The notes beneath the pieces are model-generated. The model was not told where the DNA came from. It ran no database searches and saw only the letters and a program-made list of their open reading frames with translations. From Ophelia neglecta (Eukaryota), in the NCBI GenBank assembly GCA_965285935.1, contig OZ260666.1:13144001-13208000 (forward strand): 64,000 nt of DNA, written 5' to 3'. The position numbers and the translations under genes were made by a program. Below, piece after piece: positions 1,279 to 29,099 of this stretch (its first letter is position 1; each line of letters opens with the position of its first letter).

Positions 1279-2064
1279 TTACTTGTTAGGATCCAATTCT
1301 GTCATACTATTCTTATTCGCATTTTGTAGAACATCGACCATATCTTGGTTTCCTTGAAAACGGGCTACGACAAGTCCCGTACAGCCACGGAGCGCCTTTT
1401 TGGAGACGTCAAACCCCCTTTCAATAAGATATTTTACAACTACTACGTTGTTGGTCATCAACGCCGATTCGAAAGCCTCGGTTTCCTTATACATTTCATT
1501 TGGTTTGTACGGCTCTTGCGATGCCAGGTGTTCGGCGATATCAAGTCTCCCAAACAACGGGGTTCGGCCTTCTAAGTCCTCGATGTTTACATCAGCACCT
1601 TTCTCAATCAAATGATCTATAACTCGTATATGTTTATTTCCACAAGCCATATGCAGTGCCGTTTGCTTATTTTTGCTCAAACAATCAACTTTAACGGCTG
1701 GCTGAGAACACAGCAAGATGACAATTTCTAAGTGCCCTTTCTCAGCAGCAATATGTAGGGGGTTCAATCCATCTTTGCCAGACAGATTTACGTCGGCGCC
1801 ATTTTCCAACAAACATTTAACGACGTCAATAAATTCATTGGCGGAGGCTGACACGAGGGGGGTGAATCCGAGCTTACTCCTGGCGTTAACATTTGCTCCA
1901 GCCTTAACTTCCGACCGAACTTTTGTATAAGTGCCTGCCATCACAGCTAAGTGCAGTTGGAGCTCAGGTATTTTGGCGCCCTGAAATTCACTGAGTTCTG
2001 TATCTTGATTTCCGTTATCAATTATTTCGTCGCATTGAGACGCGAGCCCAGAGCACTCCCCTTC
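1279..2064 (-). CDS. Gene A exon 5, cytoplasmic ankyrin-repeat domain (~7 repeats, intronless)
   Basis: Acceptor tttttcag|GAA, phase 0. Ankyrin motifs: GFTPLVSA..VVKCLLENGADVN, GLNPLHIAAEKGHLEIVILL, KQTALHMACGNKHIRVIDHLIEKGADVN, GRTPLF, VVKYLIERGFDV. Confidence 0.92.
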   Translation of the reverse strand, partial: EGECSGLASQCDEIIDNGNQDTELSEFQGAKIPELQLHLAVMAGTYTKVRSEVKAGANVNARSKLGFTPLVSASANEFIDVVKCLLENGADVNLSGKDGLNPLHIAAEKGHLEIVILLCSQPAVKVDCLSKNKQTALHMACGNKHIRVIDHLIEKGADVNIEDLEGRTPLFGRLDIAEHLASQEPYKPNEMYKETEAFESALMTNNVVVVKYLIERGFDVSKKALRGCTGLVVARFQGNQDMVDVLQNANKNSMTELDPNK

Positions 2065-5000
2065 CTGAAAAATATACACAGTTAAGGAAAGGTATAAAAT
2101 TAATTCAGTATTTTTTAGAATAAAAAAGAGTTGGATATAAGAATACAGGAAAAAAATATGCATGCAAATCAAACTCATCTGATAAGACATGAATTGGGAG
2201 TTTGATTAGTATTTTAGTCTAAATTGACGCGTTAAACCGATCGTTGGACCTTTAACAACCTTATCAGGCAAACGAGTGTGTTTGTGCCCTACTTCGAAAT
2301 CAGACCAGTGGACAAGTTAGCAAATATAATTCTAGTAAAGTAAGTAACAGTTAATATATTTGTCAACAGGCTGGATTGAATGCAAGGGAGCTTGAAATAT
2401 ACTTTATGAAGGGGCATGTATCCTCGGCCAATTCGGAGAGGATACTTATTGGTGTTCACAGGACTGCCATTGGGGATATTAAACCAAATCTCGAATTCTA
2501 AATTTACTGATAACGCGAATATAAATGTGATTCAATATTTCATTAAACACCAACCTTCGTTCGTTGCAGAATTTTGGTCCCTAGAGGATAATTCCATTTA
2601 TGAAGCATTACAACACAAAAGCTATGTTAATCTGCACTATTATATATAACTGTAATTGTATCATAATCGTAAACCAAACAATAGCTAGGCAACGGTAATA
2701 TCAGGCAGAAAACAGGAAACTCCTTTATATAGTACATACCATGAAAGAACATTTCTTTACTGTCATTAGCAATCTCGAACATATCTAGGATTTTTTCAAC
2801 ATATCTAGGACGACACATTTTTTAGCAAGCGACTCAAAGTGTGTTTTCTGTAAATTTTCGTCAATATTGTACCCTTAAGTTTCAAAATTTGATTCAATCT
2901 ACAGAAATTCAAATATTTAAGCCTCCTATGAAATGAAAACGGATTTTTCTTTCTTTCCCGGAGGCGACATGAATTCCATACCTCTAGATACTGTAGGTGC
3001 CATAGAATGCATTTTTAGTAAAACATAGTAAATTGATATATTTTGACCAAATTTAATACATAACTATTTTAATTTTCAAAATCCAAACATGAGTGCAATT
3101 ACGTGTAAATGAATATGAAAGACTAAGCTAATACCAAAAGTGTGTACTTGTCAACGTTATTAGTCACGCACACGGAAGTTGAATTACCTTTACTTGATGC
3201 TTTCTTTTGCGTTGCAACCTGCACACTACCAACAGGACGGCAGCTACTATCAAAAAAAGCAATGCGATCACAGCGACAATAACGGCGACAAGTTGAAATA
3301 GATTTCCACTTTCCTGAGAAAGGGGTATATAAGTTGTAGTTGACGGATCTCCTAGAGGGATGCTTGCTGTCGTTTTATCTAAATGATTTTCAGCTGATGG
3401 ATCTGGAATACAGAGTGAGGCATTGAGCGTTAAAAAGCTCGGTGTCAAGTATTTTAAGAAACACATAAACCCAATAGAGAATAATGGTTTTAATATTAAT
3501 TTTGGGGTTATTAGTGCGAAAAGCAACAACATACCTTTGACTTCCACGTAGAAGTGTGTTAGACTGGGATTCAATCCAATGAACGATAGTTTCGTTACAA
3601 GTTGTGTATCGCCCACTTCCGGAAATGCGAGTTCTGCTTCGCACTGCAGTTCTTTGTCAGGTACAATTCTACAGTCGTAATGGTCCAAGTCTGCGGATAT
3701 GATACATTGGACGCGAGGCTCAGCTTTAGGTATAACTACAACCAAGGTAAGGTTTCCTGGCTTTTCGAGCTGCAGATGCTTGTTATTATATACAAGCTCG
3801 ATCGTGGGCTCGCCTAGCTTTTCTGTTAGGTACAAAAACGGATAGTAATACTTATGTCGGTCTGGACAAGCTGAAATAAAGAAAATAATAAATTTAATTA
3901 GAGGCAAATGATGTTTAGAGGTTGGTATTCCGTCTTTTGTGTTTCCTTGGAAACAACCTTAAACGTATTACATTAGTCAACCTAATTGATTTAAAATAAA
4001 TGGAAATTGAAATCAACCTGACCATGGCTGAATAAATATTTAACCTTTTGCGCGAGGTTTCAATAAACTGGGCCCAAATATATCCACAAGATGGGTTAAT
4101 GGCGTTGTACATTGAACATGTGATCCATCATGGCCACTTATTTAGGGCTAACAGGCGTTAATACTTCATTGGTATTCATAAAAGACTGTTTGGTCTACGT
4201 AAATGTCATGTTACATCGTTACATCGCGAAATGTTCTAAACACTAGAGTATTAAAACAATGATTAACAGCAGTTCACGCGTCTAGAATACATACACACAA
4301 ACCCGTTTGCCATGGAAAACGCTACTTTGATTCGGTTTTGTCCAGGAGTTGCGTTTATTAACATCATCGCCTTTAGGCTTTAGGTTAAAAATATAAATTA
4401 TCCTCATTTCAAAACTCCCAAGGTTTACTCGAAAAGTTTATAATTATGAAAAAGATTAACACTGGGTGGTCTACTTTAATTAAACTCGTTTACGAAGTTT
4501 TAGTTTACTTATAATACTGACGTAACCTAGCGCTGTAGAACTAAATCGGTTGTTGTTGATGCTTATTTGCATATTACTTATGTCAGATAATGTGCATTCG
4601 GTAAAATTTACCTGTTGATTTTATGACCTTCAGTTCGGCGGCATCGATTAAAGCGAGTTTTTCTCCTTTTATATATATCTCTATGTCATATTGCCCGCTA
4701 TCAGACAACACAGTTTTTTCTATTGAGAATCCAATATAGGTAACATTATCAATCAGAGAGACATTGTTAGTATAGTAACTAGCATTCTCAATAGCACTAT
4801 TATTGATTAGCATCTGATACTGGGGTAGCGATTTTACGAGTCGTATGTAGTCAACCATGCCCAGACTGCGGTTGTAGTTCCACAAGAAGCGGGCGTTTTC
4901 CCCATCACAGACGTACAGTTTATCCGGGCGTTGCAGCCAGTCTGAAAGAGAAACCGCTATTTAGGTTATTTCCCAATAATATTGGTGTGTGTGTTGTTGA

Positions 5001-5557
5001 CAGTGGTCACACTATAAACTTGAAAAAAAAGGGCCGAAATATAAAATATATAAACACATACTTATTGAGTTACAGAACATATGATGAATGTATTAAAATT
5101 GAAAAAAAAACACCTTGACAGCAATAGAAAACTAAAAAATAAAAGATGTTCGCAAAAACAAAACATTGTGGATATATGGTAATTTAATACTTTCATAATA
5201 AGTACTAAAACATTCCATATCTGCCCAATAAATTTTCCCTACTCTCCTCCTTGTTTTCATATGTTAATTATCCAATAGATCAACAGTGTGTGTGTGTGTA
5301 TGTTAAGTATGGTTTATAAGTGATAGATACTTGCATTCGGAAAATTTCCCGTGCCGTTATACGCATGATTAGTATGTGCTGTATTGCGCCGGCTGCCGGA
5401 TAAAATATGACATATAATTGACAAAAAAACATCTCACTTATTAGTATACGTGGCTTGTGATTTAAATTTAAAAATATTTACCCCCTGTGGCGGTTGCAAT
5501 TGGCTCAAAGAGTAGGGAGTTCATTGCTAAAACCGATAGTGCTGTAACCAACGTCAT
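1279..5557 (-). CDS. Gene A: type I IgSF membrane receptor with cytoplasmic ankyrin repeats (5 coding exons, ~580 aa)
   Basis: Exons 5557-5482, 4941-4612, 3870-3535, 3402-3188 and 2064-1279. All introns are GT-AG with phases 1,1,1,0. The total is 1743 nt, in frame, ending in TAA. Order: signal peptide, V-like Ig, second beta domain, Ser/Thr stalk, TM (LVAVIVAVIALLFLIVAAVLLVVC) followed by basic RLQRKRK, then ankyrin repeats. Exons 2-4 are matched by paralog gene B. Confidence 0.85.
3188..3402 (-). CDS. Gene A exon 4, stalk + transmembrane helix
   Basis: Acceptor tattccag, donor AAG|gtaatt (phase 0). Thr/Ser/Pro stalk, ~24-aa hydrophobic run, basic stop-transfer residues. Confidence 0.9.
3535..3870 (-). 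CDS. Gene A exon 3, second extracellular beta-rich (Ig-like?) domain
   Basis: Acceptor tatttcag, donor AAG|gtatgt, 336 nt. ACPDRHKYYYPFLY...; 49/112 identical without gaps to gene B exon 3 (hand count). Confidence 0.9.
4612..4941 (-). CDS. Gene A exon 2, atypical V-set-like Ig domain
   Basis: Acceptor ctctttcag, donor CAG|gtaaat, 330 nt, phase 1-1. DWLQRPDKLYVCDGENARFLWNY...GFSIEKTVLSDSGQYDIEI...AELKVI has the DxGxY tyrosine corner but no B- or F-strand Cys. Confidence 0.9.
5482..5557 (-). CDS. Gene A exon 1, signal peptide
   Basis: MTLVTALSVLAMNSLLFEPIATATG, then phase-1 donor GGG|gtaaat. Confidence 0.7.
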
Positions 5558-8560: not shown

Positions 8561-11500
8561 CGACATAGTAAAAGGGTCACGAAATATATATAGACCTTTC
8601 AATATTTGGTTAGAATTCTGTAGCAGACTCTAGCTTTTTACTTCATCGAAATGTCTAGATTTTGACAATTTAAACATGGGGGACTTGTAATCTCTGGCAT
8701 TGACAACTAATATAGGAGGCCTATCATGTTATGACAGAGGGGACTGCCACGAAATTATCAAGCAATCACTGACTGGCAATTAATCACATTAATGGAGGGG
8801 GGGGGAGTACCAGTCGCTAATACCAGCAGGGATGGGCTAGTGATTTGATGGATGGGGGGTGGGGGTCAAGAAGACTTTCCCCCTAAAATCCTTCTTGTAT
8901 CAAATCACTAATTAACCCCCTAAATGATGATTGATGAAGCTGCATTATTAGGCATGCGATTCCCACTAAAAATAATCGGACCACTATGGGATTGCATATT
9001 TCATATATATCTGATGGTGTCACATTTCTCCTTCCCCAAATACAGTTGATTAATGTTAATAATTTCGTAACCCCCAATCAGAACAGGTGGTGCCACCAAG
9101 TATTGGATGGACCCCCTCAGGGCCCTCACCTCCGATGATTTGTCACCCATAATTATTATAAACCCTTAATTATATAACTTTTGTGGGTCGCCTTTGGATA
9201 GAAATTTTAATCTCTTAAACACTACCGACTCAGGCCTAGCTGCCACAAATAGAAACATATATATAGTGCGGTCGAAATGACCGATTTTGTCCGTGACCGA
9301 TTTGGGTAATCCCGCTTTGGTTGTGCCGGTGGTTATCGATTACGGAAATAATGCTGCAAAGCTTTTAACAAATTATTTCGAGGCCTGCGTTTAGTTGACA
9401 TGAAAGGTGTGATTGTTTCAACTTCCAGACTTATCCAGCTGTGCAGGATGTGAGCGATTCGCTGTAGCAGTTACCACAGGCCATTACCATAATGCTACAA
9501 ATTTTGGAGGTCCGCGTTCGCCGTTCGCGCGTCTGCCGATTCAGAACAGCCGACTAAAAGAAGAAACATGCATTTTAGTACTCATACATCACACATTGAA
9601 ACGATAAAAAATACACAGCCAATTGCTGGTAAAATAAATAATAAGCTATGAGTTAAAATTGACCTGTTGAAAATGGTGGTACCGATATATCGGTAACTTC
9701 AACAAGTTGCCATTCGGTTATAGATACGGTACTTTTTAGTTCTTCCTAAACACTTCGTGTTTTTTAGATTTGAAAAAACCATTATGTAGCAATATCTCTA
9801 AAACTAGCTATTTCACAATATTGTCTGAATAATAGAGGGCCTAACATATATCCTAATCGAGTTGCAGATGTCAATACAGCATGACTTAATAAAGTCTTGA
9901 GTGTGGAACCAAATCAATTCTTTTGCGGTGAAATGGGGATTAAAGAAAATAAAATTATTTGAGCAAAATATAATCTCCATATACTAGAAGCACTCTCCAA
10001 TGAAACCGTTTATTGAATTTGTTTTAAAATCTTGAGGGAGTGAGGAGGAACGTCCCGTTAAGGCAAAGTACCAAAAGTGAATTCATATCGTACCTGGGAT
10101 TGATATAACTGCGCCTACAGCTTCCAGCTTCAGAAAGACTAGACAGAATTTATAAGAACATCCTGATTAATGACTGTGCATTGTCTGCAGGGTTTTAAAC
10201 ACATTGCGTGACCTGGCTTCTCCGTACATCTCCGAATGAGTTGAAGTTCACAGATTTTAACGTTCATGTAGGGGTGAGCCCGGGCATCTTCAAAATGTTA
10301 CATGGTGACCCACACTTCTCAATATATGGATCCAAACTATTTACCGAATTGTCAAATGTACGGGTTTATAGACTTTTCCAGACAGCCTCGTGCAGAAGAC
10401 TACATTTTACCACCTGCTTATCGGACACCTTCATGGCCCCCCTGAGCTGTCTGCGGAGCATATAGCGCTCCCTATGAGACCTTAATCTTTCGGGTGATTC
10501 ACATTCTACAACAGCAAAGTTATTTGTCCTTACAGGTATCCAATTTGCTCCTTGGTAAGGTGAATCAATCAAAGAACATTGCTCAAAGAGCTAAATGGAT
10601 TCAAACTCAAACGACCTGACCATAATAAAACCATCATGTAGGCAATTTAATACCTCATTCTGCTCTCCCACGCAGTGGTATATCTACCGAGTTTGTTTAC
10701 ACGTTAACTCTAGACACAATTTTCAGCTCGCTTACAATAACTGATAGAAATATATTTGTAACCTACTATAATGTCTGATTTATGATACGGTTTTATTCTA
10801 GGCAACAGAGGTTTTACGTAGAGCATTACATGTAAAATTGACTTTACAAATCTGTAGCCGTCGGCGTTTTCTTTGTTTGTTTTTGTCATTCATAAATGAA
10901 ATACATGTAAATTATTACTACAGGGATGCATTTCGCTAACGAACTTCGTGACAGGGTGATAACCCCATCTTCATTTCGAGATAATCGTTCATGATCTAGC
11001 CTTTACCAAATCAAGTTTAACACTATCCGGGAGTAGCCAAAAGTCCGGCTGAGCATTGAACACCTGCGGGATCGCTCCCTAGATAATCCTTCATAGAATA
11101 TAGCCATTACCCGGTTCCGCCCTTTATCGCTTCCTTCTACTGGATGATGTTGCTTGGCCCTTACGTCAATTAGGCCTATAACACGCCTACCCTTGGGTGG
11201 GACGAAATGAACCAAAAAATTCCCGTTACTCATGTGATCCAAACTCTCTTTCTCTCCCAGTCTCGTTTCAAATACTTAAATCTGAACATATTATCCAACT
11301 GTGCAACAGAGGACTGTGTATGCGTCCAATGAATGCAAATATTTTACTATTAATTAGAATTATATATATATATATATATATAACCGAACAGACAAAAATA
11401 GACAGAAAGATAGAGATTGTGAAATTGAACCTGATATAATTTGATGATCTTTCTGAGGAATTTACATCAAGACTAAGGAACTTACAAGAAATTACCGTTG

Positions 11501-13008
11501 TTTGAAACAGGGGAAAAAGTAGGAAATATTTTGTCGGCGTAGAAAAAAAGGAACACACTGTGCAGAAAATACAAGGCGGTAACTTTTTGAAGAGATATAT
11601 TGGAAACAGGAAACTTTTTCTTTGGACAACTTTAATCCTCACAGTCAAATAAATAGGAACACGATATAATTCATTCATATTATTTGGTGTGACTGAGAAG
11701 CTGAATAGGGTCAGTCGGGGATGATGTAATAATTCTAGTACAGCCTGCTAGCAAGGAGGTGAAACCACTGCATACCAATAGTCTACACTTGAATGTGGGG
11801 CTAGACTACAGATTTGCAGCGGTTCCATGTTCATTGCGAAAGCTGTAGCTATCACACAAATGTGAAATTTCCCTGAATGGAAAGCCCTCTAAAATGTTAA
11901 TCATCCCTGTAACTTTTGTTTTGATTACTTCTACAAGCACTAAGTAAGGGCTTTAAAAACATCATTCCCATGTTAAATTCCCATATGAACAGCTGAAAGT
12001 AGCCCCACTAATCCCAGCCTTACCACTGCCTTTTAATTGCAATCAGCTTTGGAGGTGAGAAAAGTGGTTGTTGGTCAGCAGTATGAAACATATCCGACTG
12101 GCCCTATTGTTTGGTACAGACAATAAGATACATGTCTATACTGATATTAATACTATAGATTATGCTTTCACCAGACTAAATATTTTTTAATAGATACAAT
12201 ACACTCCAACGAATCACATCCACGGATCAGAACATAAAGCCAATTAAGCCCAGTGTGTACACATGTAAATAAACTTAATTCTCATAATGTAACTTTTTCA
12301 ATTAAGATGTTTTACAATCCCGCAAAGTCATATGTGGAACGAAAGTTCGTTTTAAAACATATGTCCTGATTTTAATTTGGTTGTCATCCACATTGTATAT
12401 CTAAGACACATTTGCCTTTTAAGTGTTAGAAAGAAAAAGTTTACTATTTAACATTGCAATACAAAACAAATAAAACAAGGATTTTTCTTTCTTGGCTATA
12501 GCAGTAAGTACAGCAAAAGTCAGCAAGCAATACAGTCAATCAAACAATGCAGTAGCCGGGAAACCAACAAACATCTGTTCTGTGACCTTTATTGGCAGTT
12601 CAATATTATTATGCATAATGGAATCAATGTTAGTAGAAGAGGCAAACATTTAACAACAACAGGCATTCACATGACATCCCTACAGACGCCGTTATGATTA
12701 TTATGGTTAGGAACATACTATTACATAAGCCATTATACCTAAAGGTTTCGAAGTTAATTATCTTTAGCTTGAACCAATTATAATGGCTTAAGATGTGGTT
12801 TTTTAGCGAAGCATTTTGGTACGCTCGAAAATATTGTTTATGAGGCTGCAGCTGGTGGTTCCTGATTGACGAGTATCCACTGATGTTTTTTCATCATTGC
12901 CCGACGGCAGACTTCCTTTTGCTATATTTTATAAATATTCACTCATCGTTTATGTAATTAACGCGATTGATCATTTAAATTTAAGATCATCCTAATATCT
13001 TATTTCAG

Positions 13009-13328
13009 GTTGGCTTCAGCGTCCGGGCCAAGGTTATGTCTGCCACATTTCTATGGATCTACAACCTCAGCGTGGTGCAGGTTGATTCCATTTACATCGT
13101 CAAGTTCAACCACGACTTGACACAATTTTGTTAGGTTTACAAAAAACCGAAATCTTGAAACAGCCCCTAACCGGATCACTTTCAGCATAATAAACAATGA
13201 TACTTTCAAATTCACGTTGAACAACACGCCAAGGGCTGATGATGGAACCTATGAAATTTACATATTTATTTTTTCTCCCCAAATCGTAAGCAGAGACCAT
13301 GCATACTTGACAGTCATCCCAAAACCAG
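13009..13328 (+). pseudogene. Orphan frameshifted V-like Ig exon of the gene A/B family, inverted orientation
   Basis: Acceptor tatttcag|GT and donor CAG|gtaaaa are intact, but the length is 320 nt. It reads WLQRPGQGYVC / ATFLWIYNLSVVQVDSIYIVKF / HNFVRF...FKFTLNNTPRADDGTYEIYI...AYLTVIPKP across three frames. I found no downstream CPDR or TM exon on the plus strand. Confidence 0.8.
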
Positions 13329-16300
13329 GTAAAACTATTTTACTTGTAAAACTGTTCTTTCCTTTCCATGACCCAGCTGCGTATAGTTGTATTAACGCTT
13401 TTATACACACAATATAAAAAGCGTAGCCACGAAAGATTGACGGCGGTGTCCTGAGCCCTTGCATAATCTTTCTTGCCAATTTTTTTTATATGTCATTCAG
13501 AAATGTCATCCGAAATTGCATCCTCCTCCGTAAAGGTCCCGCACCTACGCTTGAGGCGATTAGAAATAACAAAGTGGATCTATATATATACTGTTAGACT
13601 TTTTTTTTTAAATCGGTGTTCCTAATGTGAAATTTATTCATCTATAAATAGCGTACAATGGAAATTTAGTTTCGATAATATCTGGATTTAGCCTGTAATA
13701 ATTTATAAATTGCTTTAAAATGGGAAAAAAACGTAGAAAGTTTTCGTCTTATATAACAGCCGAGTTGTGGCAAATGTCATAGATTAATGATTCCCAACAA
13801 AAATAAAAGTTTGACGGACGATAGGACTAAGCTATTATTCTTTAAAAACAGTTTTTCTTGATTATGTGCTTTATTGATTTAGCATTCTTAAATTGTGAGA
13901 GTATGAGTAAGCGGCATTTTTCGAAAATAAACACTTGACCAATATGTAATTAAACAGCGGGGTTTTTTTTTGACGCAAGGCATTAAATTAATTCTTATAG
14001 TGTCTAGACCTACAGACTAATGTCGATTAAATGCGGTTCTAATATGAATTTATCTCGTTGAAAAAGGCATTTAAAGAATGCATATATGTGCCTCAGTAAG
14101 ATACCCCAGGTTATGCTTGTCAAACACTTTGCTTCTTATAAACACATTTCATACTTTTTGAGATAGAAACAATTGTACATTGTACTATCAAATATGGATT
14201 TATATCCGAATCAATTCAGTATGGCAGTACTGTTCAATGGTACAGTGAATAGTACTGCCACTGTGTCACAGTTCCCAAAATTTGAAGATCAATGAAAACA
14301 AACTGTTCGTGAAAATACATCGTACTTATATAATGCCATTTTTTCTCCATAGATATTAAGTGAAAAAAGGTTGACCCATTGATTTTAAAATTAACCCATT
14401 AAAATTATTTCCAGTGTGTCATTTTTTTCCATAAACTGTCAATTCTAGAATAAACCCCTGCAATAATTGCCACACCAGCCAGTTTCAATATGTTACTTTG
14501 TTTATCTTGTAAATACTCCTTTATTTGAACACCATATACGTTACTCAGGTTTATCTTTGAATCTGAACATCTATTACTTTATGTTATTAGACCGATTAAA
14601 ACTCATAAAAGTGGGTATTGTTACCGGACTGCCGGCCGTGTAAATGGCACAAAAGACGCACAATAGGTAGTTTTCCAACTAGCAACACCTTATTTGGGTC
14701 ATCTTTGCTTTGCCATTTCGCTTTGTCACGCTCATTTCACAAGTTTTTCGAGGGTACAATTTAAATCTTTCAACTTTAGATTGAAAAAGTGATATGCTGA
14801 GAGGCCCTACTCCAAAAAGAACATGCCCTACATGATAATCCCATAGGCAATGTGTTTAATTCATGCTGTTGCGGCCTTTATTGTATAAATTACTTATGTC
14901 GCTAGCCTGTAGCTCATGCTAAGCAGCAAAGCCTTAAATTCAAATGCGTCTACAGTAGCTATGTCGAGAACCCTTGACAAGAGAGGCGAGACAAGTGGCC
15001 AATCTATATTCACAGTGTATAAACAACACATTTTTTTACAGTTACTAGGCTGATAATACTTTTAACATGATCGATCTATATAGATATAGGTGTACCACCT
15101 ATTTTCATGCACTGGCGGTGGTAAGATCAAATCTTGATATATGTTCAAAATGGCCGCAGGCTTATGTTATATTAAAAAATAAAGTTTATATCTTCCATAT
15201 GTTCTCTACTTACTATATTAAGGATAAACATAAATAAATCGCAAAAACTTTTGCTAGCTGCACAATTTGTTACCAATTAACGTAGTATGCAAAACATTTA
15301 AATGCGTAATACTTCCCTTACACTTACTTGACGTTGGCTACTCCTTCTTAAGTTTGAATGGTACATGAACAATTCTTATTCAATCGGCAGTCACATTGTC
15401 TCATCGTGTAGGGGCCAAATTATAAAAATAAGTTCCCTTGTCACTATCCGAAGAACGTCAATATCGCCCTGAACGCTTTGTATATTATAAACTTATCAAA
15501 AGCTGTACGTAATTTTACAAGAATAATTACCATTTATACTGGGCACGATATGCGATATACTTTATCGGCTCGGAGCTTCCTAAGAACACGTAGAGGCTAG
15601 AAACCGTTTTTCTAACGTTAATAGCCTCAGAACCTTATTTAACAAGGTTTGTCCACAGCGGATCCTTAATTTCTTGAAATCTATAGATCTCTACTACAAA
15701 ATGTAGTAGATCTACAACTTGGGAGCCATTTTTTTAAAAATGCGAAGGTTTATGGAACCTTCTTTTATCTATTTATTGAACCACTACCAAACCCATACTT
15801 TCCTTTAACGGCACTTTTTAGTCAGAAGAACATCTGACCCATGCACCTAGAAGATTTTTATAAAATAGAGTTCAATAACCGCTTACTTCTTACTATTATC
15901 CCCATGTAAATAAAAATAGACAGTACAATAAATAATATATAAATTATACCCAACGCAAGACACGAAATGGCCCACATGGTGCCTATGTGTCGCTAAGCCC
16001 CAATTTATAAATTAGAGAAAATTACAAACACACCAGGGAAAAATATTATTTTCTAATTCCTGTGTTAACCTAGTTTGGTGGATTTATAGGCAGATTTTTA
16101 AGTGTACGTGCAATTTGGAAGTTAGTAGAAAGGGGCGGATTTAGGTATGGGTGATATAGGAAACTATTAAACTAGAATTACTGAACAGGGCCTGACATCA
16201 CTTTTATGAAATACTTGCTCGAAACATAAAATTTGGGCATTGTTGACATATGTAATGAATGTGTATTACACCCGCTCGACTTACATTTTATTTTGCCCCG

Positions 16301-16612
16301 GGCAATCACACTTTATTTGACTTTTGGCCGTGCGCGATGCCTAAATCTCCTAGAATTGAAGGTAGCGAGCGAGCTTTTAGGTACTGACTATTTTTATCGG
16401 GAGGCGGCGGAGGTATTCATATTTCTGAGAGAGGAACCATCTTATTATAAAAAGCTATAGTACTAATTGAATACTAAATTATAAAGAAGCTATTCCCTTT
16501 GGGAATAATTGTCATTTTAAAATTAAGTTGTATGAATTATCATCATCGTTTCATTTAGAAATTACTAAAATCAATTGAATATATATGTATGTTTTTATTT
16601 GTGAATATAGGT

Positions 16613-16738
16613 TTAAAACTGGGTTTCTGATGTAATTTGTCCGCTTATTAAAGGGTTAGCTTCTTCACGTCTCGGCGAAACCACATGTCCTTCCATATTA
16701 TCGATCGTTTCGTCCGTACCATCGGCTCTGTCGTCTCC
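16613..16738 (-). CDS. Gene B terminal exon, 41-aa acidic tail
   Basis: Acceptor ctttcttcttgttatag. GDDRADGTDETIDNMEGHVVSPRREEANPLISGQITSETQF*. DETIDN matches DEIIDN at the start of gene A exon 5. Not in the ORF track. Confidence 0.72.
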   Translation of the reverse strand, partial: GDDRADGTDETIDNMEGHVVSPRREEANPLISGQITSETQF

Positions 16739-19700
16739 CTATAACAAGAAGAAAGAATATGTCATACTTACGCATAATGCATAAGCAAAAGTGTGTTTTA
16801 TACTGTTAGTCCGGGCCCTTAGCGAGTTTTAAGGGGGGGGGGGGGGTGGTTCAGATTCGTCTACAATTACCAAATTTCGCCCAGATGTAGACCAGAACGT
16901 ACTCTTGATTTTTGGAGGGCGCCGAGACAGGCGCTCACTAGGGCAGGAAAATTGGTTAAATCAAAGATTGCCGCCAGCCGGAATGCCTTAATATCATAAC
17001 TTCGGAGCTAGAAGTCATAGGATCATAAATGAAAGCATTATTTATAGGCTTTTACCTCAAGGATTCCAAATATTACCTCAGTTTTAACATTAAAGGTGAG
17101 GTTAACCCCCTAATGCATATAGAATGTAATTAGGCTGATTTGAAAGTTATAGACATGCAACATTTTAGAGTCAAAGATTAGATCATATTACAGTTCACTA
17201 CTGATATACAAACTATGGCAAATAAAGCCAAACTCATAAGGTTTACGAATCATCTTAATGGTCCAAGTCCTTTTCCTCTGTGTTTTTATATTACAAACAT
17301 AAATGTGGCAACAATTAAGAATGCTACCCCGCGTTTGTTACAAATATGCTGAGCTCGAGTCATGTGGTAACTACAAACTGTAATGTGATGACAACTCTTC
17401 TTTTCACAATTGTCACGTCCTGATGTAGATATTGCAGAGCATTTTCACTATGAATAGCAAAGACCGTTAGGCAGACCGTGGTTCACTTCGATCAGGAAAA
17501 TTGTCTGACATTCTGGACTGTATCAAAATGCCAACTGTACAAGCAGTTCCATCTCCTCATCAACGGCGTGGTACAGGTCCACGGACTGGGAGTAGGGGAT
17601 GACAGCACATGCATCCCAAAGCGTAATTAGAATCGTGGGTTCCTCAAAAATGAGGAAAACAAAAAGGACTGCATGTTTTACTCAGAAAGGAGATTTTCTA
17701 GAAAGATATGAGTGGGAGGTTCCTCTTAAGCACCAAGTTGGAGTGTGCCCTCTAACCAACCCTATGATGTATCAGCCCTCCAACCCTGTAACCACTCTGA
17801 GGCAGACACAAGGATATTCCTCTTCGCAAATGTTGCAGCAAAGGGTCACAGAACAGCCTAAATATGTCCCGTTGACAGCGAATAAGTACTTCTTGCTGTA
17901 CCATACTTCACCTCACTTGGTTTTTCATAGCTGTGGGCGGGCCATGGTATTGGGAAAAATTTCCATGATATTCCCAAACATGATATCTGGTCTCATCTTT
18001 GACCCTCCAAGTCGCTGGCATTGCCACTCTTCCATGCAATCACAGGATGTGATACAACATCACAGTTCCTTGCCTATGGACAGAAGACTGCCTGGGCATC
18101 TTAGCAAAGCACTCAAGGCTTCACTGAAGCACTGGTGGCCCTCACCCGAGACCCATGACTCTTCACCCTTCTGCCTCCAAACATGCAAAAGCTAAAAAGA
18201 TGCTTGGTAATCATGTACAGAAAGTGCTGTGGTTCGTCCAAGGTCTATGAAGCCAGGTACCGTATGTTTACCTATGGGGACATAGCAGTCAAATCTGTAG
18301 ATAACACATGGAATATTATTGTGTTGTTATCTTTGCCTGATAAATATATGTCTCAAAATTGCAGAGTGCAAAATGCGGCAGCAGGAATACTGACTGGGTT
18401 GCCCCTTGTAACCCTATTATTCCCATCCTATTTGAACTCCACTGGCTACCAGTGAATTTCGAAAAACATTTGTTTTAAGTTTGTATGCTGGTTTTTAAGG
18501 TATTCTTACATTTGAACCCTTATTTAACAAAAAGGTCAGCTATATGTTTATTGTTGGTGGCCCCCAGGTCAAGAGCAGTAATGCAAAGCTAACACAGGTG
18601 TTCCACCCCTGCACAGCAGATCTGTGGAACTCTCTTCCATGCAATTTAGAATCTATTTAGAATTTAATGATTTTAAATATCCAAACAAAAACTCAATTGT
18701 TCAGGGTGCTTACGATAAACTGATATGTGATTATTCTAGTCGTTTTTATATATTCAATATTCCTTTTTTGCTAATTCGTATAGCGTAACTTTAAATTGGT
18801 TATAACTATGTATTGATTGGTCCAAATTTTATGCAGAGTATAATTTGTTTTATGTATACATGTATGTACAGCGCTTTGAGCTTATTTTGGAAAAGTACTA
18901 TGTAAACGTTTAAAAATTATGCTTTACTAGATTTGATAATAATGAACAAACCTGTTTTGATTGTTGATATTTGTGGCGATAGAACAAAGCAGCCAGTACA
19001 CTGATCAGTGCGACTATTGTTAAAATGACGATCACCACAATTAATACAACAATCAGTGATATGTTGTCGGTACCGTTGTCGGAACATAATGGCGAGGTTA
19101 CTGTTGATGTAATTGGTGCCTTTTGGGTTCTAGAGGACAAGGTTTCCATTTTATATTGGGTAGTCTGTGCCGAAGAATCTATAAGATAGAAACCGACAAT
19201 TGTAAAGCTAGTTTCCATTGACAGAAGAAAGCAACAAAGAAATAAAAGAAAAATAGCATTGTAATATCAAGAGCAGTAACGACTCACACTAAAGAACATT
19301 GTACCGAAATTAAGGATACCTGTGGACTTAATATAAAATGTTGTTATGCTTGGTTCACGCGCCACGAATGCAAGTTTGACTATGACTTCTTCATCCTGTT
19401 TACTTGAAAAGAAAATCTCCACTTCACACTCCGTCTCTATATTTTTCCTTCCACTGCAGGCTTGAGCCATTTGGTTCATGTATATAGTACACTCTACAGG
19501 TGGCTCAGCCGCTGGTATCGTAGATCGTAGGGTTATATTTCCAGGCTTGTTCATCTCTATCCGTTTGTTGTTATATATAGGTTCCGTCACAGGCTTCCCA
19601 CACTTATTTGTTATATAGAGAACGGGATACTCATATTTTGGACGGTCAGGGCAGGCTGAAATATTAACACAGTTAATGCTTACTACATAATAGATGGTCT

Positions 19701-20921
19701 TATATCCTAGATTGTATGTGTTCCCATAAAATAATGATTATTTATTATTAGGGAAAGCTTTGGTATTAACTGAAGAAGCATCTTTTCTATTCTGTTTTCT
19801 TCAATATGTTTTCCCCTCTCCCTCTTCTCTCATTTACATGTATAATGAATATACTTAAACATATTATTATAAGTCCGGGTAAATAAGCTGATCTATAGCT
19901 TCACCCTATTGCTAAATATATGTTGTATACAATCATTTATGGATGTATGTATGTATCAAAATAGCAATAAACTGCTGAAAACTGAAAATATTTAATTTTA
20001 CGGGTTTCGATGAAAACAGCTATATTTGCACACTGCCTTGTTATAGGTAATAAAGAATGATAAATTAACCTTTACCTGTTTTTCTTATCACAATTAGACT
20101 GGCAGATTTCGAAAGTATCACGTCTGCATTCGCAGGAAGAATGTTTATCGAATATGTACCATTGTCCGATATTGAAGCATTTTTCAGGGTGAATCCATAG
20201 GAACTATCATTAATGTAAGTAAACCGGGGGTCGACCTCTAAGGGATCCTTGTTCGGGTACATTTCCACCAGATTTTTCCAATCCGGAGGGTCTTTTGTAA
20301 ACTGTGCAAATTGAAAAATCTCAATAGCATGATGGTAGTTCCATATCAACTGGGTCGATTCACCTTCGCATACGTACACTGGATCCGGGCTCTCTAGCCA
20401 GTCTGCAAATAGTTCCATATTAAAATTACATGAACTTTGATATGTTCTTATGAAAGTTGTTACTTAACGATAAGCAACAAACTGTAATGTAATAGATAGA
20501 TACCAATCGTCATTTAAAGTCCAAACAAGATGTAACAAAGAAATTATGAACGGATAGTGAAAACTACTATTTTGACAGATATATAAATATCAAACCTGCA
20601 CGAAGAAACGAAAATATTTGTTTTGTTTTTTCATAAACTCTGAGTTGGGAACATCGACGATTTTCTTTACTTGCATGTAGTTCAGTTTTCTTATTATTAG
20701 TTTGATTTTATAGTTGGAGCAGATTATATTTGTCAAATATTGCAATGCTAGGCACAGCATTCATTAATGAAACAAGTATTATCACATCCGATACGTGGTG
20801 TATAATTTTGTGATGGTCTAAAGCAAATATATGAGTTCTTACTATTATTTGGCTGATCGCTTCCGATCAGGTACACATGTATAATCGGTATAATTAAAAC
20901 TTGAGCATTCATTCGCGCCAT
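16613..20921 (-). CDS. Gene B: type I IgSF membrane receptor, paralog of gene A, short cytoplasmic tail without ankyrins (~364 aa)
   Basis: Exons 20921-20843, 20402-20076, 19655-19320, 19178-18952 and 16738-16613. GT-AG introns with phases 1,1,1,0; 1095 nt in frame; AATAAA 14 nt after the stop. The first coding exon and start codon are less certain. Confidence 0.82.
16807..18285 (+). mobile_element. Degenerate Academ-like DNA transposon (XPG/FEN1-like nuclease transposase remnant) in the last intron of gene B
   Basis: Broken frames give SLRSGKLSDILDCI, QPCNHSEADTRIFL and GIGKNFHDIPKHDI..L*PSKSLALPLFHAITGCDTTSQFLAYGQKTAW. These are the EADT and GCD motifs of XPG-like nucleases, as in Academ transposases. 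In-frame stops are present. Possible terminus TAGTCCGGGCCCTTAGCG at 16807. Confidence 0.72.
18357..18720 (+). mobile_element. L2/CR1-group LINE 3' fragment
   Basis: RVQNAAAGILTG followed by frameshifted PIIPILFELHWLPV, the typical L2 ORF2 C-terminal signature. Confidence 0.75.
18952..19178 (-). CDS. Gene B exon 4, stalk + TM
   Basis: Thr/Ser stalk, then ISLIVVLIVVIVILTIVALISVLAALFY, then RHK. Donor CAG|gtttgt, phase 0. Confidence 0.9.
19320..19655 (-). CDS. Gene B exon 3, second extracellular domain
   Basis: 336 nt, the same length as gene A exon 3. ACPDRPKYEYPVLY...KPGNITL...AEPPVEC. Confidence 0.9.
20076..20402 (-). CDS. Gene B exon 2, atypical V-set-like Ig domain
   Basis: 327 nt, phase 1-1. 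WLESPDPVYVCEGESTQLIWNY...RFTY..YGFTLKNASISDNGTYSINI...ASLIVI. Confidence 0.9.
20843..20921 (-). CDS. Gene B putative signal-peptide exon (coding part; exon probably begins at 20953)
   Basis: MARMNAQVLIIPIIHVYLIGSDQPNN with phase-1 donor A|gtaaga. A strong polypyrimidine acceptor ctctttctctcctccag at 20955-20954 implies a further upstream exon (candidate donor |gtaagt at 21084). Confidence 0.55.
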
Positions 20922-24302: not shown

Positions 24303-27300
24303 CTTGAGATGAATAATACAATAAAACGTTAACATAATATAGGTTTGTTTGACACAAAGAACATTTCAATCACCAAAAACGAACAAAGAAACAAGGGACC
24401 GGAAAGTTGATTGAGGACAAATGTTAATTATTCAATCTGGCACGGTGGTTTAAAGTCGACGATGAACATAATTGATACAACACAATTCGCTAATACTACA
24501 ATAAATGCACTAATTTAATATTGCATATCATTGCACGATTGATAATTCCGTTTATTGGAACTACTCCATAATCCCAGCGGCGACGATCCAAGCTGATCCA
24601 AGATAAAAAACAATGGTTGACTGAATGTGATAAACCATCAACTTATCTTAGAAATTCCACGATAGTTTTTCAAACCATCCATACAACAATGACGGATGCC
24701 TCAAGTAAAGTGTACAAAAGATGATTTGTTTTTCGTAAGCAAAAAAATAAAAAATTCGCCATCAATAAAAACAACTTACGACGAGGGCAACATATTATCC
24801 CAGACAAAATTACTGCAGTACAAACACAAACGGAAGTGGACGCTAGCAGGGCCAGGTTGAAACCTTCCAAATAATTCATATCCGCGTTACTCTCTAAAAG
24901 ATAAAACATTTATTTCAAACATATAATTTTAAAGCGTCTATCATTAATCGGTAAAATATGTGTGTAAAATAACTTATCACTACCATATAAAGAAGTCAAT
25001 TGTCATTAACAGGTTAAAATTGTCTTTTCCCCTAAAGTTGCAATGTAAAGTTAGTTATTAAAACTCCATATGCATACCTGAATACATTGCTCTGGTAGTG
25101 ATTGGTAAAGTGGAAAACGCGTCCTTCTCGCCTGCGGGTTTTAAGCCTAGAACTAACCAATAATTGAGGCATTTCAACAAAAGCGATATGCCTCATAGGC
25201 ACTGTGAATATATTGACCAGTGATTTTTTTAAATGTTCAATAATGAATTATTATTACACATACTTTTCAAATTTATATTTTTCACCATTCGATGGCTATT
25301 GGGGATTTGTTATATTTATTTCTCTAATGTGAAAACTTTGAACAAGGCAATTGATGAGGGCAATCAATCATGACAACGAATGATTACTGAATGTGTTCTT
25401 TCCTACCTATATATACATAATTACGTGATGCGGATTCATACTTGGATCCCAATTCCCGGCCTCTACAAGAGTAGTTCAAAATACTGTATTCCCCCACTGC
25501 TGTTGGTAAAGGTAGTTCATGTTTGTTTGTGCCATTCTCGATAGTCAAGCCATTGCACAGCCAAATATAAGTCATTAAAGGTCGGTTTTCTTCCGGAAGT
25601 GATGCGGAAGAAACTTTACATGCTAACCGGGAGTTTTCAATAGAAATGGTTGCCGGTAATGGTTTCTCTGCAAAATAAGTCAACACATTTTTAGTTTGTG
25701 ATAGTGCAAAAAAATAATGCAGGCCTGGAAGAATAAATAACAACACTGCATATGTAAACATTGGCCATTGTGTTGCTGAGGGGCTGAGGTAGTATGATGT
25801 TTATTGTTTTATGACAATTTATGAAACAAAACAAAGGAAACAATTGATAATTCAAAGGGACGGAGCCATTAAGTCGTAATATCGGCCACCGTCAGAAATT
25901 GCTATCTACAACGAACGTAATACTGTACAGTAGTTTTCGTTTCACAGCGGTTAAGAATATATAATGCACGCAAGCGGACTTTTATTCCTTGTGGCTATTA
26001 AAGCAACAATTATAGAAAATAATAATTCGGCTGTACTCACCCCAAACAAAGACGACTTTAAATTCACTGTAATTAGTTGTATGACAAGTGTATGTCCCTG
26101 CGTTTTCAATAATTACATTTGTCAAAGTAATTATCACCGACGATTTATTTGTCAAACTGAATGTCATTGTATGTGTTGCTTTTTGGTCGCCCGAGGGAAC
26201 CAACGAGGAGTTGCGAATTATGAACAAAAGACGTCCTTGGTGATAGCAGTTGAAAGTCTGCACCTTTAATGCCTCTGGTGGATTCCAAACAAGGCTGATG
26301 TTATCTCCTTCATAGACTCTTTTAAAACCATTATCTGGGCATAACAATGTTTAAGGAATGTTCAAATAGTTGTAATAAAAACAATTCACAAAATATAGCA
26401 ACCCGACACAATTTTATGGAGACGTGTTACTTACCTGGGACATATGTAGTTTCTTCCGAAGGATGAAGAGAATTAGATGAAGAGGACGCTGTGAATTCTG
26501 AAATAAGGGTCCCGATTTTATGTTTTGGAATGCTAATAATATAATAATAATTCTATATATTTATTAAGCGTATAGTACCGGAAAACCACTCGTAGCCGCG
26601 AAATGTACCATGTTGGCCAAGGAATGCAATAAAATACGATAAAACAGGCAATATGCATTTATTATTTTCAAGAAGAATGTAATGCGTTATTGTCTTAATA
26701 AGTAGTATGACATCGAATGTATTACCCATCAGACGGCTGGTTGTTATCAGTGACGTATCCTTATCTGTTGCTACGACGGTGACTCCGCCTTGGGACGACA
26801 CTGAAGGCAATGCGCCGGGGAAAGAATTATTTTAATAAACAAAAACAATATCATTTGTCTTCTAACGTTGTTATAAAGCAAGAAGACACCTGAATACGCC
26901 AGAGAGGAGGGTAGGGACAGGAAGGGGGGGGGGGGGGGGCTGGAGATTACTTTACTCTATTCATTGATAAGGAACTGCTTTCTACATTGTATAATCATCT
27001 TTTCTATAATGGCGGATTAATTTCTTTGAGTTACTGTCATAAATAATGTTCTGGAAAAAAATGTACCACCCGATTACCACGTTGAGAAATTATATGTCGG
27101 GTTCCCATGGAGTGCCGAGAGATAAAGGGAGAATAAGCGCGACTTGAGCTGTAGCATAAACCTACCTTAGTGTAAAATATATCCTGATACGTTTACATAG
27201 CATAGCATATCCGGTTGCATATTCTATCAATATACGATTAGAGGTTAAATTGAGGGAGGAGGAAATTAATACGGAACTTACCTTTTTTTATACCAAACTG

Positions 27301-28161
27301 CCAAACTAGCCCAATGATTCCGGCGAGAGCCATTGTGGTTAACAACAGTATTGCTATCAAGCCATATATTCTTAGAAATTTGCGTTTTTGTCCCCTATGG
27401 CGTAAAATCAACCTTTGATAAATGTTCTTTCTTCCGGCCTGTTCGAACTGGATGTGTGCCCTTTCCTCGCTGGACGTTCTTCTAGGATACTCATATCCGC
27501 TGCAATCTCGCCGAGTGTCATTTACCTGGCTTGGTCTTGGTCTGTTCACACTATCAGTGATGGGAAGCTCTATGATTTCGGAGTAGCAATGGCTACCGTT
27601 CGAACTGGATGTTTCGCCAGAGGTTTCGTCGGTTTCCGATGAATCATTGATGACGTGCACGCTGCGAGGTAGCTTCGGAGAGCAGTCTGCAATTGTCGCG
27701 ACCACGTTGAAATGTTTCTTAATCGATGTCTTCGGTCTCGCACCTTGATTGGTGGCATATGAATAAGGATATTTCTGAACAGAAGTTCCATGCCCAGGTT
27801 TATCATGTAATTTGTTTTCTTCTATGTTTTGATTGTTAACTGCTCTATCTTGGTGTTCATCCTCGAAAGGCACTTCATAACCATCATTAGGGACCTCCTG
27901 GTCTTCATTTTTTTCGTCGTTTCCAGTTTCGTGTCTTACGAAGGCCGAGGCGTTAGAACAATTAACATTGCCATGAGTACTTCGTGGAACATCCGGGAAA
28001 GTCAGAAGGTCTTTTCGCAAGTTGGTTGTGGCGGGAGGCTTGTAACACGCCGTTTCCCCCCTGTAATTCCAAGAAGGGCGCGGGGCCATATCGTCACTCA
28101 TCTCTGTTAGTTCAAAACTAGTTTTACCGGGCTCGATAGGGAAGAATCCACCCTCGGCCAT
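24217..28161 (-). CDS. Gene C: predicted two-pass membrane protein with Tyr-motif N-terminal cytoplasmic region and two extracellular Ig domains (8 coding exons, ~613 aa)
   Basis: Exons 28161-27282, 26800-26726, 26497-26435, 26334-26041, 25667-25407, 25146-25078, 24893-24780 and 24302-24217. All introns are GT-AG phase 1; 1842 nt in frame ending TGA. Confidence 0.78.
24780..24893 (-). CDS. Gene C exon 7, second TM helix
   Basis: Acceptor ttttatcttttag. FNLALLASTSVCVCTAVILSGIICCPR; donor C|gtaagt. Confidence 0.8.
25078..25146 (-). CDS. Gene C exon 6, linker
   Basis: 69 nt, phase 1-1. GLKPAGEKDAFSTLPITTRAMYS; donor CAG|gtatgc. Confidence 0.65.
25407..25667 (-). CDS. Gene C exon 5, C2/I-like Ig domain
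   Basis: 261 nt. LACKVSSASLP...MTYIW...YSCRGRELGS has the canonical C-W-C core. Acceptor tattttgcag, donor TAG|gtagga. Confidence 0.88.
26041..26334 (-). CDS. Gene C exon 4, V-like Ig domain
   Basis: 294 nt. VYEGDNISLVWN...FNCYH...ITLTNVIIENAGTYTC...VFVW; donor GGG|gtgagt. Confidence 0.88.
26435..26497 (-). CDS. Gene C exon 3, Ser/Thr stalk
   Basis: 63 nt, phase 1-1. tatttcag|...EFTASSSSNSLHPSEETTYVP...CAG|gtaagt. Confidence 0.8.
26726..26800 (-). CDS. Gene C exon 2, Ser/Thr stalk
   Basis: 75 nt, phase 1-1. ccttcag|...VSSQGGVTVVATDKDTSLITTSRLM...G|gtaata. Confidence 0.65.
27282..28161 (-). CDS. Gene C exon 1: disordered cytoplasmic region with Tyr motifs + signal-anchor TM1
   Basis: 293 codons from ACAATGG. 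Motifs YEVP, YSEI, YEYP and YQRL. Basic RHRGQKRKFLR precedes IYGLIAILLLTTMALAGIIGLVW. Donor AAG|gtaagt. Confidence 0.9.
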
Positions 28162-29099
28162 TGTTCCAAGACGAATGGGACGGGAGTGGAAATATAACTG
28201 TATATGGTTTATAACATATATGTCCTCATCATTATCAGGTTATGCGCTTCATATAATTTGTTTACATAACGAAATGTAGATGACATCAATGTGTGTTCCC
28301 CTGCCATTTGTCTTTATATGCTTATGGTATTGTAAATTACAAGTCATCTAAACTCATGTTATAGTATTACCATGTTTACCAAAGAAAATGTATTTGGCTT
28401 CCTTTTGATCTGCACCAGTAAAGGTTTAACCTAAATTGGGATAATACTTGCGCTATTTCGACATGTTGGGAGTGCTTTCCAAGAGCGTATGCAAGTCATT
28501 ATCCATCAATTATTTATAATAAAGTGATCCCATGCAGAACTTTGCGACTATGCCAACTGTGTTAACCCAGGCACCCTTAATGGTGACAGTGTTTAACGGT
28601 CCTTTACGGTCCATTTTACGAAATGGGCACCGGCCAGTATTAACCGGTTGGTTGGGTGAGGGACAGGGTCGAAGATTGGGACAAAAACTAAATAGAGAGC
28701 GACAGGTGCTGTATTTTGACTGGTCTTAGAGTTAAGAAGGTTATATTTCATTTGTGCGGTTGGTTAAAATATTCATATTCAACCAAAACACCCATAACAT
28801 GACTTTTAGCAAGAGCAAGCGGATTAGGATGGGGCTGGTCCTGCTAACTTGGAAATTTGGCACTGCATTTAAACGATACAAAATATTTATTTCCTTTGGT
28901 AACATAAGCTAAGAAATAATCCGTCAAATTTAGGTGTTATGACATAGATGCTGAACTTCCACCGCACTCCCACCAGATTGTAATGCCTCCTGACGAGGGA
29001 ATAGGCCTCCTAAACCTATGATTGTCCACCCTCGGGTTATAAAAGAAGTTGACACGGAAGGTGTTCTTCGTCTAACAACAAAATGTAAAATATCATCCT

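Follow-up and report, generated by a model that had tools for sequence, protein, structure and literature searches.

Vertebrate paired and decoy receptors are clustered and follow a common ectodomain plan, with a long tail on some members and a short tail on others. In paired receptors, the ectodomains are highly similar and the genes are sister paralogues, an ITIM-bearing tail on one side being matched by a charged transmembrane segment with ITAM or adaptor coupling on the other. Among invertebrates, the Alr proteins of Hydractinia are described (PMC9546547) as a cluster of single-pass proteins whose domains, V-set-like or unusual Ig-like in type, are each encoded by a single exon; many pseudogenes accompany the genes, and the cytoplasmic tails diverge more than the ectodomains. 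Alr tails bear ITAM or ITIM motifs, and in the part of that paper considered here, the word "ankyrin" refers to the Shark kinase only (PMC9546547). The scavenger-class-F-like LG5R cluster of Biomphalaria is reported (PMC13712769) to comprise single-pass receptors with EGF/Tie2/lectin ectodomains, mostly with small, domainless tails, alongside a subgroup with a large enzymatic (PTP) tail and many fragments. Finally, the cGLR fusions described in the main text of Li et al. (bioRxiv 10.1101/2023.02.22.529553) are of the ANK, TPR, death-domain, and tandem types, with no Ig or transmembrane form among them, and "immunoglobulin" occurs there 0 times.

Here, we analyse two neighbouring receptor genes, A and B, in a 64,000-nucleotide stretch of the Ophelia neglecta genome (the window), together with their relatives in the same genome. 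Judged by the published description, the family resembles Alr in its clustering, domain-per-exon plan, pseudogenes, and divergent tails; unlike the tails described for Alr, those of the present family are built from folded modules (ankyrin, cGAS-fold, and MATH). With LG5R, as reported, it shares the arrangement of a lophotrochozoan cluster of single-pass receptors in which tails are mostly short, a subgroup is large-tailed, and gene fragments are many, but the ectodomains are Ig-like and the large tails are ankyrin, cGAS-fold, or MATH modules. The cGLR-ankyrin fusions, in the form described, find a counterpart in stand-alone giant genes with the layout ANK-cGAS-fold-ANK, 9 of the 14 examined keeping the three acidic catalytic positions, whereas 0 of 5 receptor-borne domains have this catalytic triad.

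Gene B is an intact, short-tailed receptor gene

Gene B lies on the minus strand and has five exons with an open frame of 364 aa, predicted to encode a single-pass protein. All introns are GT-AG, and their phases (1/1/1/0) are identical to those of gene A; splicing of gene B, as of the whole family, was deduced from the DNA sequence. The features of the gene are as follows.

20843..20921, minus strand: exon 1, likely signal peptide (79 nt, phase 1; the frame is open, with an ATG and a GT donor, and all 5 copies retain it; presumably used)
20076..20402, minus strand: exon 2, V-set-like Ig domain D1 (327 nt; weak Pfam V-set match)
19320..19655, minus strand: exon 3, Ig-like beta-sandwich D2, the signature exon of the family (336 nt; AlphaFold pLDDT 93)
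18952..19178, minus strand: exon 4, Ser/Thr stalk and uncharged transmembrane helix, phase-0 donor (read from the sequence)
16613..16738, minus strand: exon 5, acidic 41-codon tail that contains an acidic dileucine-type motif and ends in a stop (acceptor, frame, and stop retained in 5 of 5 copies)
16594..16599, minus strand: AATAAA polyadenylation-type signal (13 nt past the stop; present in all five copies)

The V-set match of D1 has an E value of 0.009 and a score of 16.6 bits, under the curated cut-off of 26. The AlphaFold model of D2 is all-beta, and its best VIA match is the SYG-1/SYG-2 complex (Z 9.2, rmsd 2.8, 97 aligned), which is tied with other beta-sandwiches, Ig-type chains spanning Z 7.5–9.2 with none prominent; Foldseek found no close structure to the model (best E 5e-4). 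As modelled, D2 is an Ig-like beta-sandwich and has the fold that membership in the Immunoglobulin superfamily requires. A search of gene B for ITIM/ITAM-like patterns gave no match, and the transmembrane residues carry no charge. Across exons 2–4 of the five copies, pN/pS is about 0.5, with no sign of positive selection.

The initial annotation had described gene B as an ankyrin-less paralogue that stops after a 41-codon last exon, with AATAAA nearby and no ankyrin remnant beyond it, and each of these points holds. The exon and the signal are retained in every copy, and exon 5 is constrained, its indels across copies being multiples of three in 4 of 4 cases, compared with 6 of 30 in the flank. 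Searches with tblastn, using 42 ankyrin ORF queries against positions 5601–18950 of the window and six paralogous loci, returned 0 matches at E ≤ 0.05, and the best ANK-HMM match had an E value of 2.7. Conserved internal splice donors in exon 5 are all weak (score ≤ 2.9); one donor-like site scoring 5.9 occurs in the window copy alone. Gene B is a real, intact, short-tailed Ig-like receptor gene.

When the longest gene B tail was searched against the genome, matches were limited to 4 gene B copies. The dileucine motif [DE]xxxL[LI], of a type associated with endocytic sorting, is present in 5 of 5 gene B tails, which as copies are not independent, and arises in shuffled tails at rates of 1.7% (window copy) and 9.9% (copy L014). 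Family-wide, it is weakly enriched (6/20, p 0.037) for a two-pattern motif that was picked after the data had been viewed. Gene B is likely a non-signalling, internalised receptor: the acidic dileucine motif may act as a sorting signal, in which case the protein would bind its ligand and then be internalised without relaying an ankyrin-based signal.

A large family with diverse cytoplasmic tails

D2 has at least 150 matches in the genome (150 of 150 scored, from 286 candidates), and exon 3 measures 336 nt in 42 of 77 distinct family exon-3 sequences. At least three ankyrin repeats lie downstream in 40 of 92 D2 rows, each taken with a 10-kb stretch, and ankyrins are found in 16 of 34 family representatives, over whose ectodomain tree the ankyrin label is unclustered (12 changes, compared with 11.5–11.7 after shuffling). 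The tails comprise ankyrin arrays, catalytically altered cGAS-fold domains, TRAF/MATH domains, and short peptides; in 20 of 20 further downstream stretches, ankyrin, cGAS-fold, and MATH exons were all absent. Tail exons share the strand of the transmembrane exon and follow it directly, mostly past one phase-0 intron according to predicted splicing. Three members (L021, L068, and L083) have the transmembrane segment and ankyrins in a single open frame with no phase-0 intron, and two others (L064 and L081) stop after the ankyrins.

The model of the L062 tail (pLDDT 76.6) matches the cGAS fold at an E value of 1.2e-9, and as modelled, the receptor-borne domain has a cGAS-like fold over the NTase core and helix bundle. 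Pfam Mab-21_C matches receptor-borne tails weakly; against solved structures, a sequence search with one tail gave an incidental weak match (E 0.038) and a profile search retrieved cGLR1 (E 0.012). The cGLR active-site motif GS...[DE]h[DE]h...h[DE]h is incomplete in 5 of 5 receptor-borne domains. The corresponding domain of the stand-alone giant genes also matches the cGAS fold. For the MATH tails, there are 9 matches at 90–100%, four of them behind a receptor transmembrane exon.

Searches of longer database proteins matched 0 of 23 candidates with D2 and 0 of 2590 with the cGAS-fold alignment, each being weak evidence, and a profile search with the family representatives yielded 21 matches, of which the 10 inspected are all unnamed. 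We found no published description of this Ig-like receptor family in the literature outside subscription, and the family apparently is a large, undescribed one among invertebrate cell-surface receptors. By analogy, it may serve immune or self/non-self recognition. Three sequencing runs contained no splice joints and cover introns and exons alike, as DNA would, and are therefore uninformative on expression.

Relationship between genes A and B

Gene A has its ankyrin block in the last of five exons.

5482..5557, minus strand: exon 1, likely signal peptide (read from the sequence)
4612..4941, minus strand: exon 2, D1 (from the sequence and comparison with gene B)
3535..3870, minus strand: exon 3, D2 (336 nt)
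3188..3402, minus strand: exon 4, stalk and transmembrane helix, phase-0 donor (read from the sequence)
1279..2064, minus strand: exon 5, acidic linker and ankyrin block (Pfam Ank_2 E 7e-32; homologous to residues ~170–385 of the giant genes)

The exon plan noted earlier as common to the two genes is real, with matching phases and an exon 3 of 336 nt in both, but it is widespread in the family rather than specific to the pair. The initial annotation also took the letters GACGAAA..AT.GATAA for a homologous start of the two last exons and placed the gain or loss of ankyrins inside a shared terminal exon. The letters are present at window positions 16714 (B) and 2031 (A), yet the two starts align no better than shuffled sequences (DNA p 0.07–0.80; protein p 0.10–0.98; 10 comparisons each) in a test that gave p 0.005 for exons 2 and 3 as positive controls. 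The exact motif occurs in 1 of 5 gene B copies and 3 of 5 gene A copies; of the other B copies, L011 is one base off, and L012, L013, and L014 are without it. Since the last exons have no significant homology, a shared terminal exon finds no support. Homology of exon 5 at the 3′ end (p 0.04–0.58, 4 comparisons) was likewise rejected, as was homology within the intron upstream.

The ancestor of gene B could nonetheless have had an ankyrin tail and lost it when its terminal exon was cut short behind the acidic linker, the remnant having decayed past recognition, an origin that we consider unlikely but credible. Loss within the last exon, as such, does happen in the family: in L028, an in-exon deletion of ~620 nt leaves a 60-aa tail. 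The spread of ankyrin tails over the tree, the termination of L064 and L081 after the ankyrins, and the acidic linker with a B-like dileucine-type motif that opens several ankyrin exons (L022, L029, L031, and L062) point the same way. However, no remnant was found, and exon 5 has no significant homology to the linkers of A and most others; moreover, separate short phase-0 linker exons apparently exist in the family (L101 and the L049-type duplicates), and the distant full-length homologue P0020 has, by inspection, no ankyrin-like tail.

It is considerably less plausible that gene B is a dedicated decoy or co-receptor of A, acting through a common ligand or complex. Like vertebrate paired receptors, A and B are clustered and combine a common ectodomain plan with a long and a short tail, respectively; gene B is without signalling motifs, and the two genes are adjacent and co-oriented in 5 of 5 duplicated units. 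Yet their ectodomains are merely 29% (D1, exon 2) and 44% (D2, exon 3) identical, which makes such a role for A specifically less likely and, together with the lack of ITIM pattern matches in both genes and the uncharged transmembrane helix of B, sets them apart from paired receptors. The two are not sisters in the best trees, although a constrained A+B clade is not rejected (p-AU 0.21). Many further members of the family are ankyrin-less, and the pairing proposed in the initial annotation is not supported, A and B being two of at least 150 genomic matches. A and B travel together because both sit in one five-fold segmental duplication, and since a giant ankyrin-cGAS-fold gene and a broken gene C belong to this unit as well, the co-duplication of A and B is passive.

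13011..13330, plus strand: gene C, frameshifted remnant of a third family member, D1 exon only (by sequence comparison)

The D1 and D2 exons of gene C are intact in copy L019.

Origin of the ankyrin tails

The intronless ankyrin block of gene A is 40–43% identical to the giant single-exon ankyrin-cGAS-fold genes, with which it has an irregular repeat in common; it maps to their N-terminal ankyrin array, well ahead of the cGAS-fold domain, which begins at residue ~615, and one of these genes lies ~10 kb away. The irregular-repeat pattern occurs at 45 sites (control 0), of which receptor tails hold 9 and long single ORFs 35, with 1 left unassigned. Because this diagnostic repeat is common to the giant single-exon genes, the block likely inherited its lack of introns, and no retrocopy is needed, since donor-type genes are already single-exon. 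A hallmark of a retrocopy-derived exon is an intron-bearing parent gene in the genome. Capture of the block via retrocopying of a spliced ankyrin gene, suggested earlier from its lack of introns, is highly improbable even if an ancient retro-origin of the entire donor family is possible, as the closest relatives of the block are other receptor tails and single-ORF genes of 1,600–5,300 codons, these two classes hold 44 of the 45 sites, the donor class is single-exon and sits in the same cluster, and no multi-exon parent with the diagnostic repeat appeared among the best-scoring genome candidates.

We consider it somewhat probable that gene B belongs, as an intact and short-tailed member, to a family whose last exons were likely swapped and captured, and that its product likely binds a ligand and is internalised with no ankyrin-based signal. 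DNA-level rearrangement among tandem neighbours would have brought the ankyrin block into a receptor gene, where it would be spliced via the phase-0 intron of the family, with tails afterwards being exchanged, truncated, or lost between receptors. Given that the tails likely came from neighbouring immune genes by capture and swapping of this kind, B probably does not serve A as a dedicated decoy twin.

Such capture and swapping would make the locus an example of a receptor-making route, in which DNA-level exon capture from neighbouring single-exon immune sensors is followed by tail swapping, and a testable case of invertebrate signalling outputs diversified independently of ligand recognition. 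Should the predicted splicing prove correct, extracellular Ig-like domains would control cGAS-fold and TRAF modules that have been relocated to the plasma membrane. We found no precedent for this architecture in the literature searched, namely that outside subscription. Tentatively, we propose that more than 100 Ig-like receptors were made by adding captured pieces of cytosolic immune genes (ankyrin arrays, catalytically dead cGAS-fold domains, and a TRAF-C exon) at one phase-0 socket that follows the membrane helix. These might be the first membrane-anchored Ig-cGLR chimeras, with the short-tailed B-types serving as signalling-null competitors or clearance receptors.

Receptor tails differ in which part of the giant genes they correspond to: the N-terminal array, the C-terminal array, or the cGAS-fold part. 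In trees that fix no donor direction, the receptor-borne N-type ankyrin blocks form one clade (96/95), as do the receptor-borne cGAS-fold domains (81/92), a pattern that would fit equally one old capture followed by losses or repeated capture.

Genes A and B in the window

In the 762-Mb eukaryotic genome from which the window derives, gene A, an Ig-like receptor gene with an ankyrin tail, and its short-tailed neighbor, gene B, have the same exon plan, as the initial annotation had it, with GT-AG introns in phases 1/1/1/0 in both. The three read runs examined behave like DNA, so the splice junctions are predicted ones.

5482-5557, 4612-4941, 3535-3870, 3188-3402 and 1279-2064, minus strand: exons of gene A, encoding 580 aa, with ankyrin repeats in the last exon
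20843-20921, 20076-20402, 19320-19655, 18952-19178 and 16613-16738, minus strand: exons of gene B, encoding 364 aa

Also as first described, gene B stops after a last exon of 41 codons, with AATAAA 13 nt past the stop. A DNA search recovered five genomic copies of this exon, all of which retain the AG of the acceptor, the TAA stop and the AATAAA signal. The indels within it (24, 21, 42, and 12 nt) are multiples of three in 4 of 4 cases; in its flank, this holds for 6 of 30 gap events. Exons 2-4 keep an open frame in every copy, with a pN/pS of ~0.5. Judged from these sequences, the last exon of gene B looks to be in use. Because the exon-4 donor of B and the exon-5 acceptor of A are both in phase 0, a minor splice joining them is possible. 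Just downstream of gene B, at ~15500-16100 of the window, lies a very high-copy repeat (summed contig depth ~1e5).

A large family of modular receptors

Exon 3 of gene B has at least 150 genome matches (there were 286 candidates, and every one of the 150 that were scored matched), most of them on C9, the contig of the window, and some family genes contain several exons of this type. Given that exon 3 measures 336 nt in 42 of 77 distinct copies and that a phase-0 donor ends most transmembrane (TM) exons of the family, the plan shared by A and B is best regarded as a family trait. The two ectodomain domains encoded by exons 2 and 3, D1 and D2, are only 29% and 44% identical between A and B, which group as sisters neither in the 92-row D2 tree (quick method) nor in the 34-row D1+D2 tree, although an A+B clade is not rejected in the latter (p-AU 0.21). 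The genes stand side by side five times because both sit in one segmental duplication, which also carries a broken third member, gene C, and a giant ankyrin gene ~10 kb beyond A. The dedicated pair initially proposed is not supported, and A and B are better read as two members of a large family that were duplicated together.

D2 is predicted to be an Ig-like beta-sandwich (pLDDT 93), with no outstanding match among solved structures, and D1 is weakly V-set-like. Outside this genome, 21 relatives were found, and the 10 inspected are unnamed; P0020, an outside protein relative, looks like a spliced full-length protein lacking an ankyrin tail. In the passages compared, the systems that come closest to this family are Alr of Hydractinia (PMC9546547), the LG5R cluster of Biomphalaria (PMC13712769), and ankyrin-fused cGLRs (10.1101/2023.02.22.529553). 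The term "ankyrin" has 0 occurrences in the main text of a review of invertebrate IgSF proteins (PMC11999971; term search), and literature searches, mostly at listing level, yielded no description of this family. Gene B belongs to a modular receptor family that is apparently undescribed.

Gene C is represented in the window by a frameshifted D1 remnant (13011-13330, plus strand); its copy at L019 retains D1 and D2, behind which no TM exon was found. On the minus strand, 27238-28239 and 25384-26350 hold an ORF of 333 codons, which bears several tyrosine motifs and has a hydrophobic helix at its C terminus, and Ig-like exons behind it (V-set E 1e-4); they possibly encode a type II membrane protein. 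Similar ORFs adjoin family loci L019, L048, and L082.

The last exons of A and B

The two last exons had been taken to start homologously and to represent one shared terminal exon. Their starts score no better than shuffles, either as DNA (p 0.07-0.80, 10 comparisons) or as protein (p 0.10-0.98, 10 comparisons), whereas exons 2 and 3, the positive controls in the same shuffle test, give p 0.005, and the claim is accordingly abandoned. The shared start motif is absent from 3 of 5 B copies and reads differently in 2 of 5 A copies. Since the B of the window agrees with one or the other A variant at each altered position, a faint common origin of these starts is possible but unproven. Behind B, neither 42 queries nor an HMM found an ankyrin remnant, in agreement with the initial annotation; the B lineage may have lost a longer tail or may have been short from the start.

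An acidic dileucine motif is present in 5 of 5 B tails despite flanking deletions. Such motifs are sorting signals for AP adaptors. In shuffles of two B copies, the motif arises by chance in 1.7% and 9.9%, and its enrichment across the family is weak (6/20, p 0.037). Because the TM helix of B is uncharged, neither an ITIM nor an ITAM pattern is matched in its tail, and the dileucine motif recurs in all five tails, B would be a non-signaling, internalizing receptor, presumably with its own ligand, rather than a decoy for A.

Origin of the ankyrin block of gene A

The lack of introns in the ankyrin block had been considered compatible with capture of a retrocopy, which is not needed, as the same cluster contains a class of intronless donors from which this feature most plausibly comes. 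Giant ORFs of 1,600-5,300 codons constitute single-frame ankyrin/Mab-21-like/ankyrin genes, and in 9 of 17 a Met is no more than 12 codons from where the ORF begins. The one ~10 kb beyond A on C9 (L026:2907-9809) is a single-exon ATG ORF of 2,300 aa with an ankyrin/cGAS-fold/ankyrin layout and a degenerate active site, and is one of dozens, the cGAS-fold domain of the giant genes having 79 genome matches. The block of A matches residues ~170-385 of the giants at 40-43% and has an irregular repeat in common with them; the pattern of this repeat occurs at 45 sites, of which 9 fall within receptor tails, 35 within long ORFs, and 1 is unassigned (control, 0). Other receptor tails map to the C-terminal array or the Mab-21-like part of the giants.

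The domain model of receptor locus L062 matches cGAS (predicted structure, E 1.2e-9). The acidic triad is retained in 0 of 5 receptor-borne domains versus 9 of 14 stand-alone domains examined. Of the 5 receptor-borne ORFs, 4 reach their first Met after 109-335 codons, with a phase-0 AG ahead of it close to where the ORF begins, the arrangement that spliced exons should show. We infer transfer from giant to receptor because the giants are complete and often catalytically intact; trees of the blocks resembling the giants' N-terminal array (N-type) and of the cGAS-fold domains leave the direction unfixed. In these trees, the receptor-borne N-type blocks form one clade (96/95), as do the receptor-borne cGAS-fold domains (81/92), a pattern that counts against repeated capture, as a single old capture with subsequent differential loss also fits it.

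Diversity of tails across the family

Tails were surveyed in stretches around ~75 of the 150 exon-3 matches, picked by rank and spread. At least three ankyrin repeats follow within the stretch in 40 of 92 D2 rows. At L062, L056, and L069, the receptor exons are followed by ankyrins and a Mab-21-like domain, and at L057 and L101 by a Mab-21-like domain without ankyrins; catalytic acids are replaced in the cGAS-fold exon of all five, making them candidate membrane-anchored pseudo-cGLRs. At L049, L053, L055, and L061 (C9 15.4-17.7 Mb), a TRAF/MATH exon follows, with 9 matches at 90-100%; the nearest further match, C5:54377299 (57%), is a possible donor. Upstream of this exon are duplicated short exons similar to its first 39 codons. 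Other members are followed by low-complexity ORFs: long tandem-repeat ORFs, candidate tails, lie behind the TM exon at L065, L070, L072, L076, L077, and L079, and those of L070, L076, and L079 gave no Pfam match when scanned.

At 20 loci whose first stretch lacks ankyrins, the next stretch contains none either (18 of 10 kb, 2 of ~3 kb), and the ankyrin label requires 12 changes among 34 representatives, the same as shuffled labels; for these reasons, ankyrin-less members like B are common, and tails change more readily than ectodomains do. Truncations of recent date are visible as well, e.g., at L028, where ~620 nt are deleted within the ankyrin exon and a stop follows after 60 aa. Between copies of A (L017 and L018 versus 1279-4941 of the window), the ectodomain exons are 98-100% identical and the ankyrin exon is 88% identical in two copies, which suggests that recombination or conversion has occurred between the ectodomain part and the tail. 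At L021, L068, and L083, the TM helix and the ankyrin array share a single open frame without the phase-0 intron between them, and at L067:3397-5472, a reverse-transcriptase ORF (Pfam RVT_1) is inserted downstream of the TM exon of a family member.
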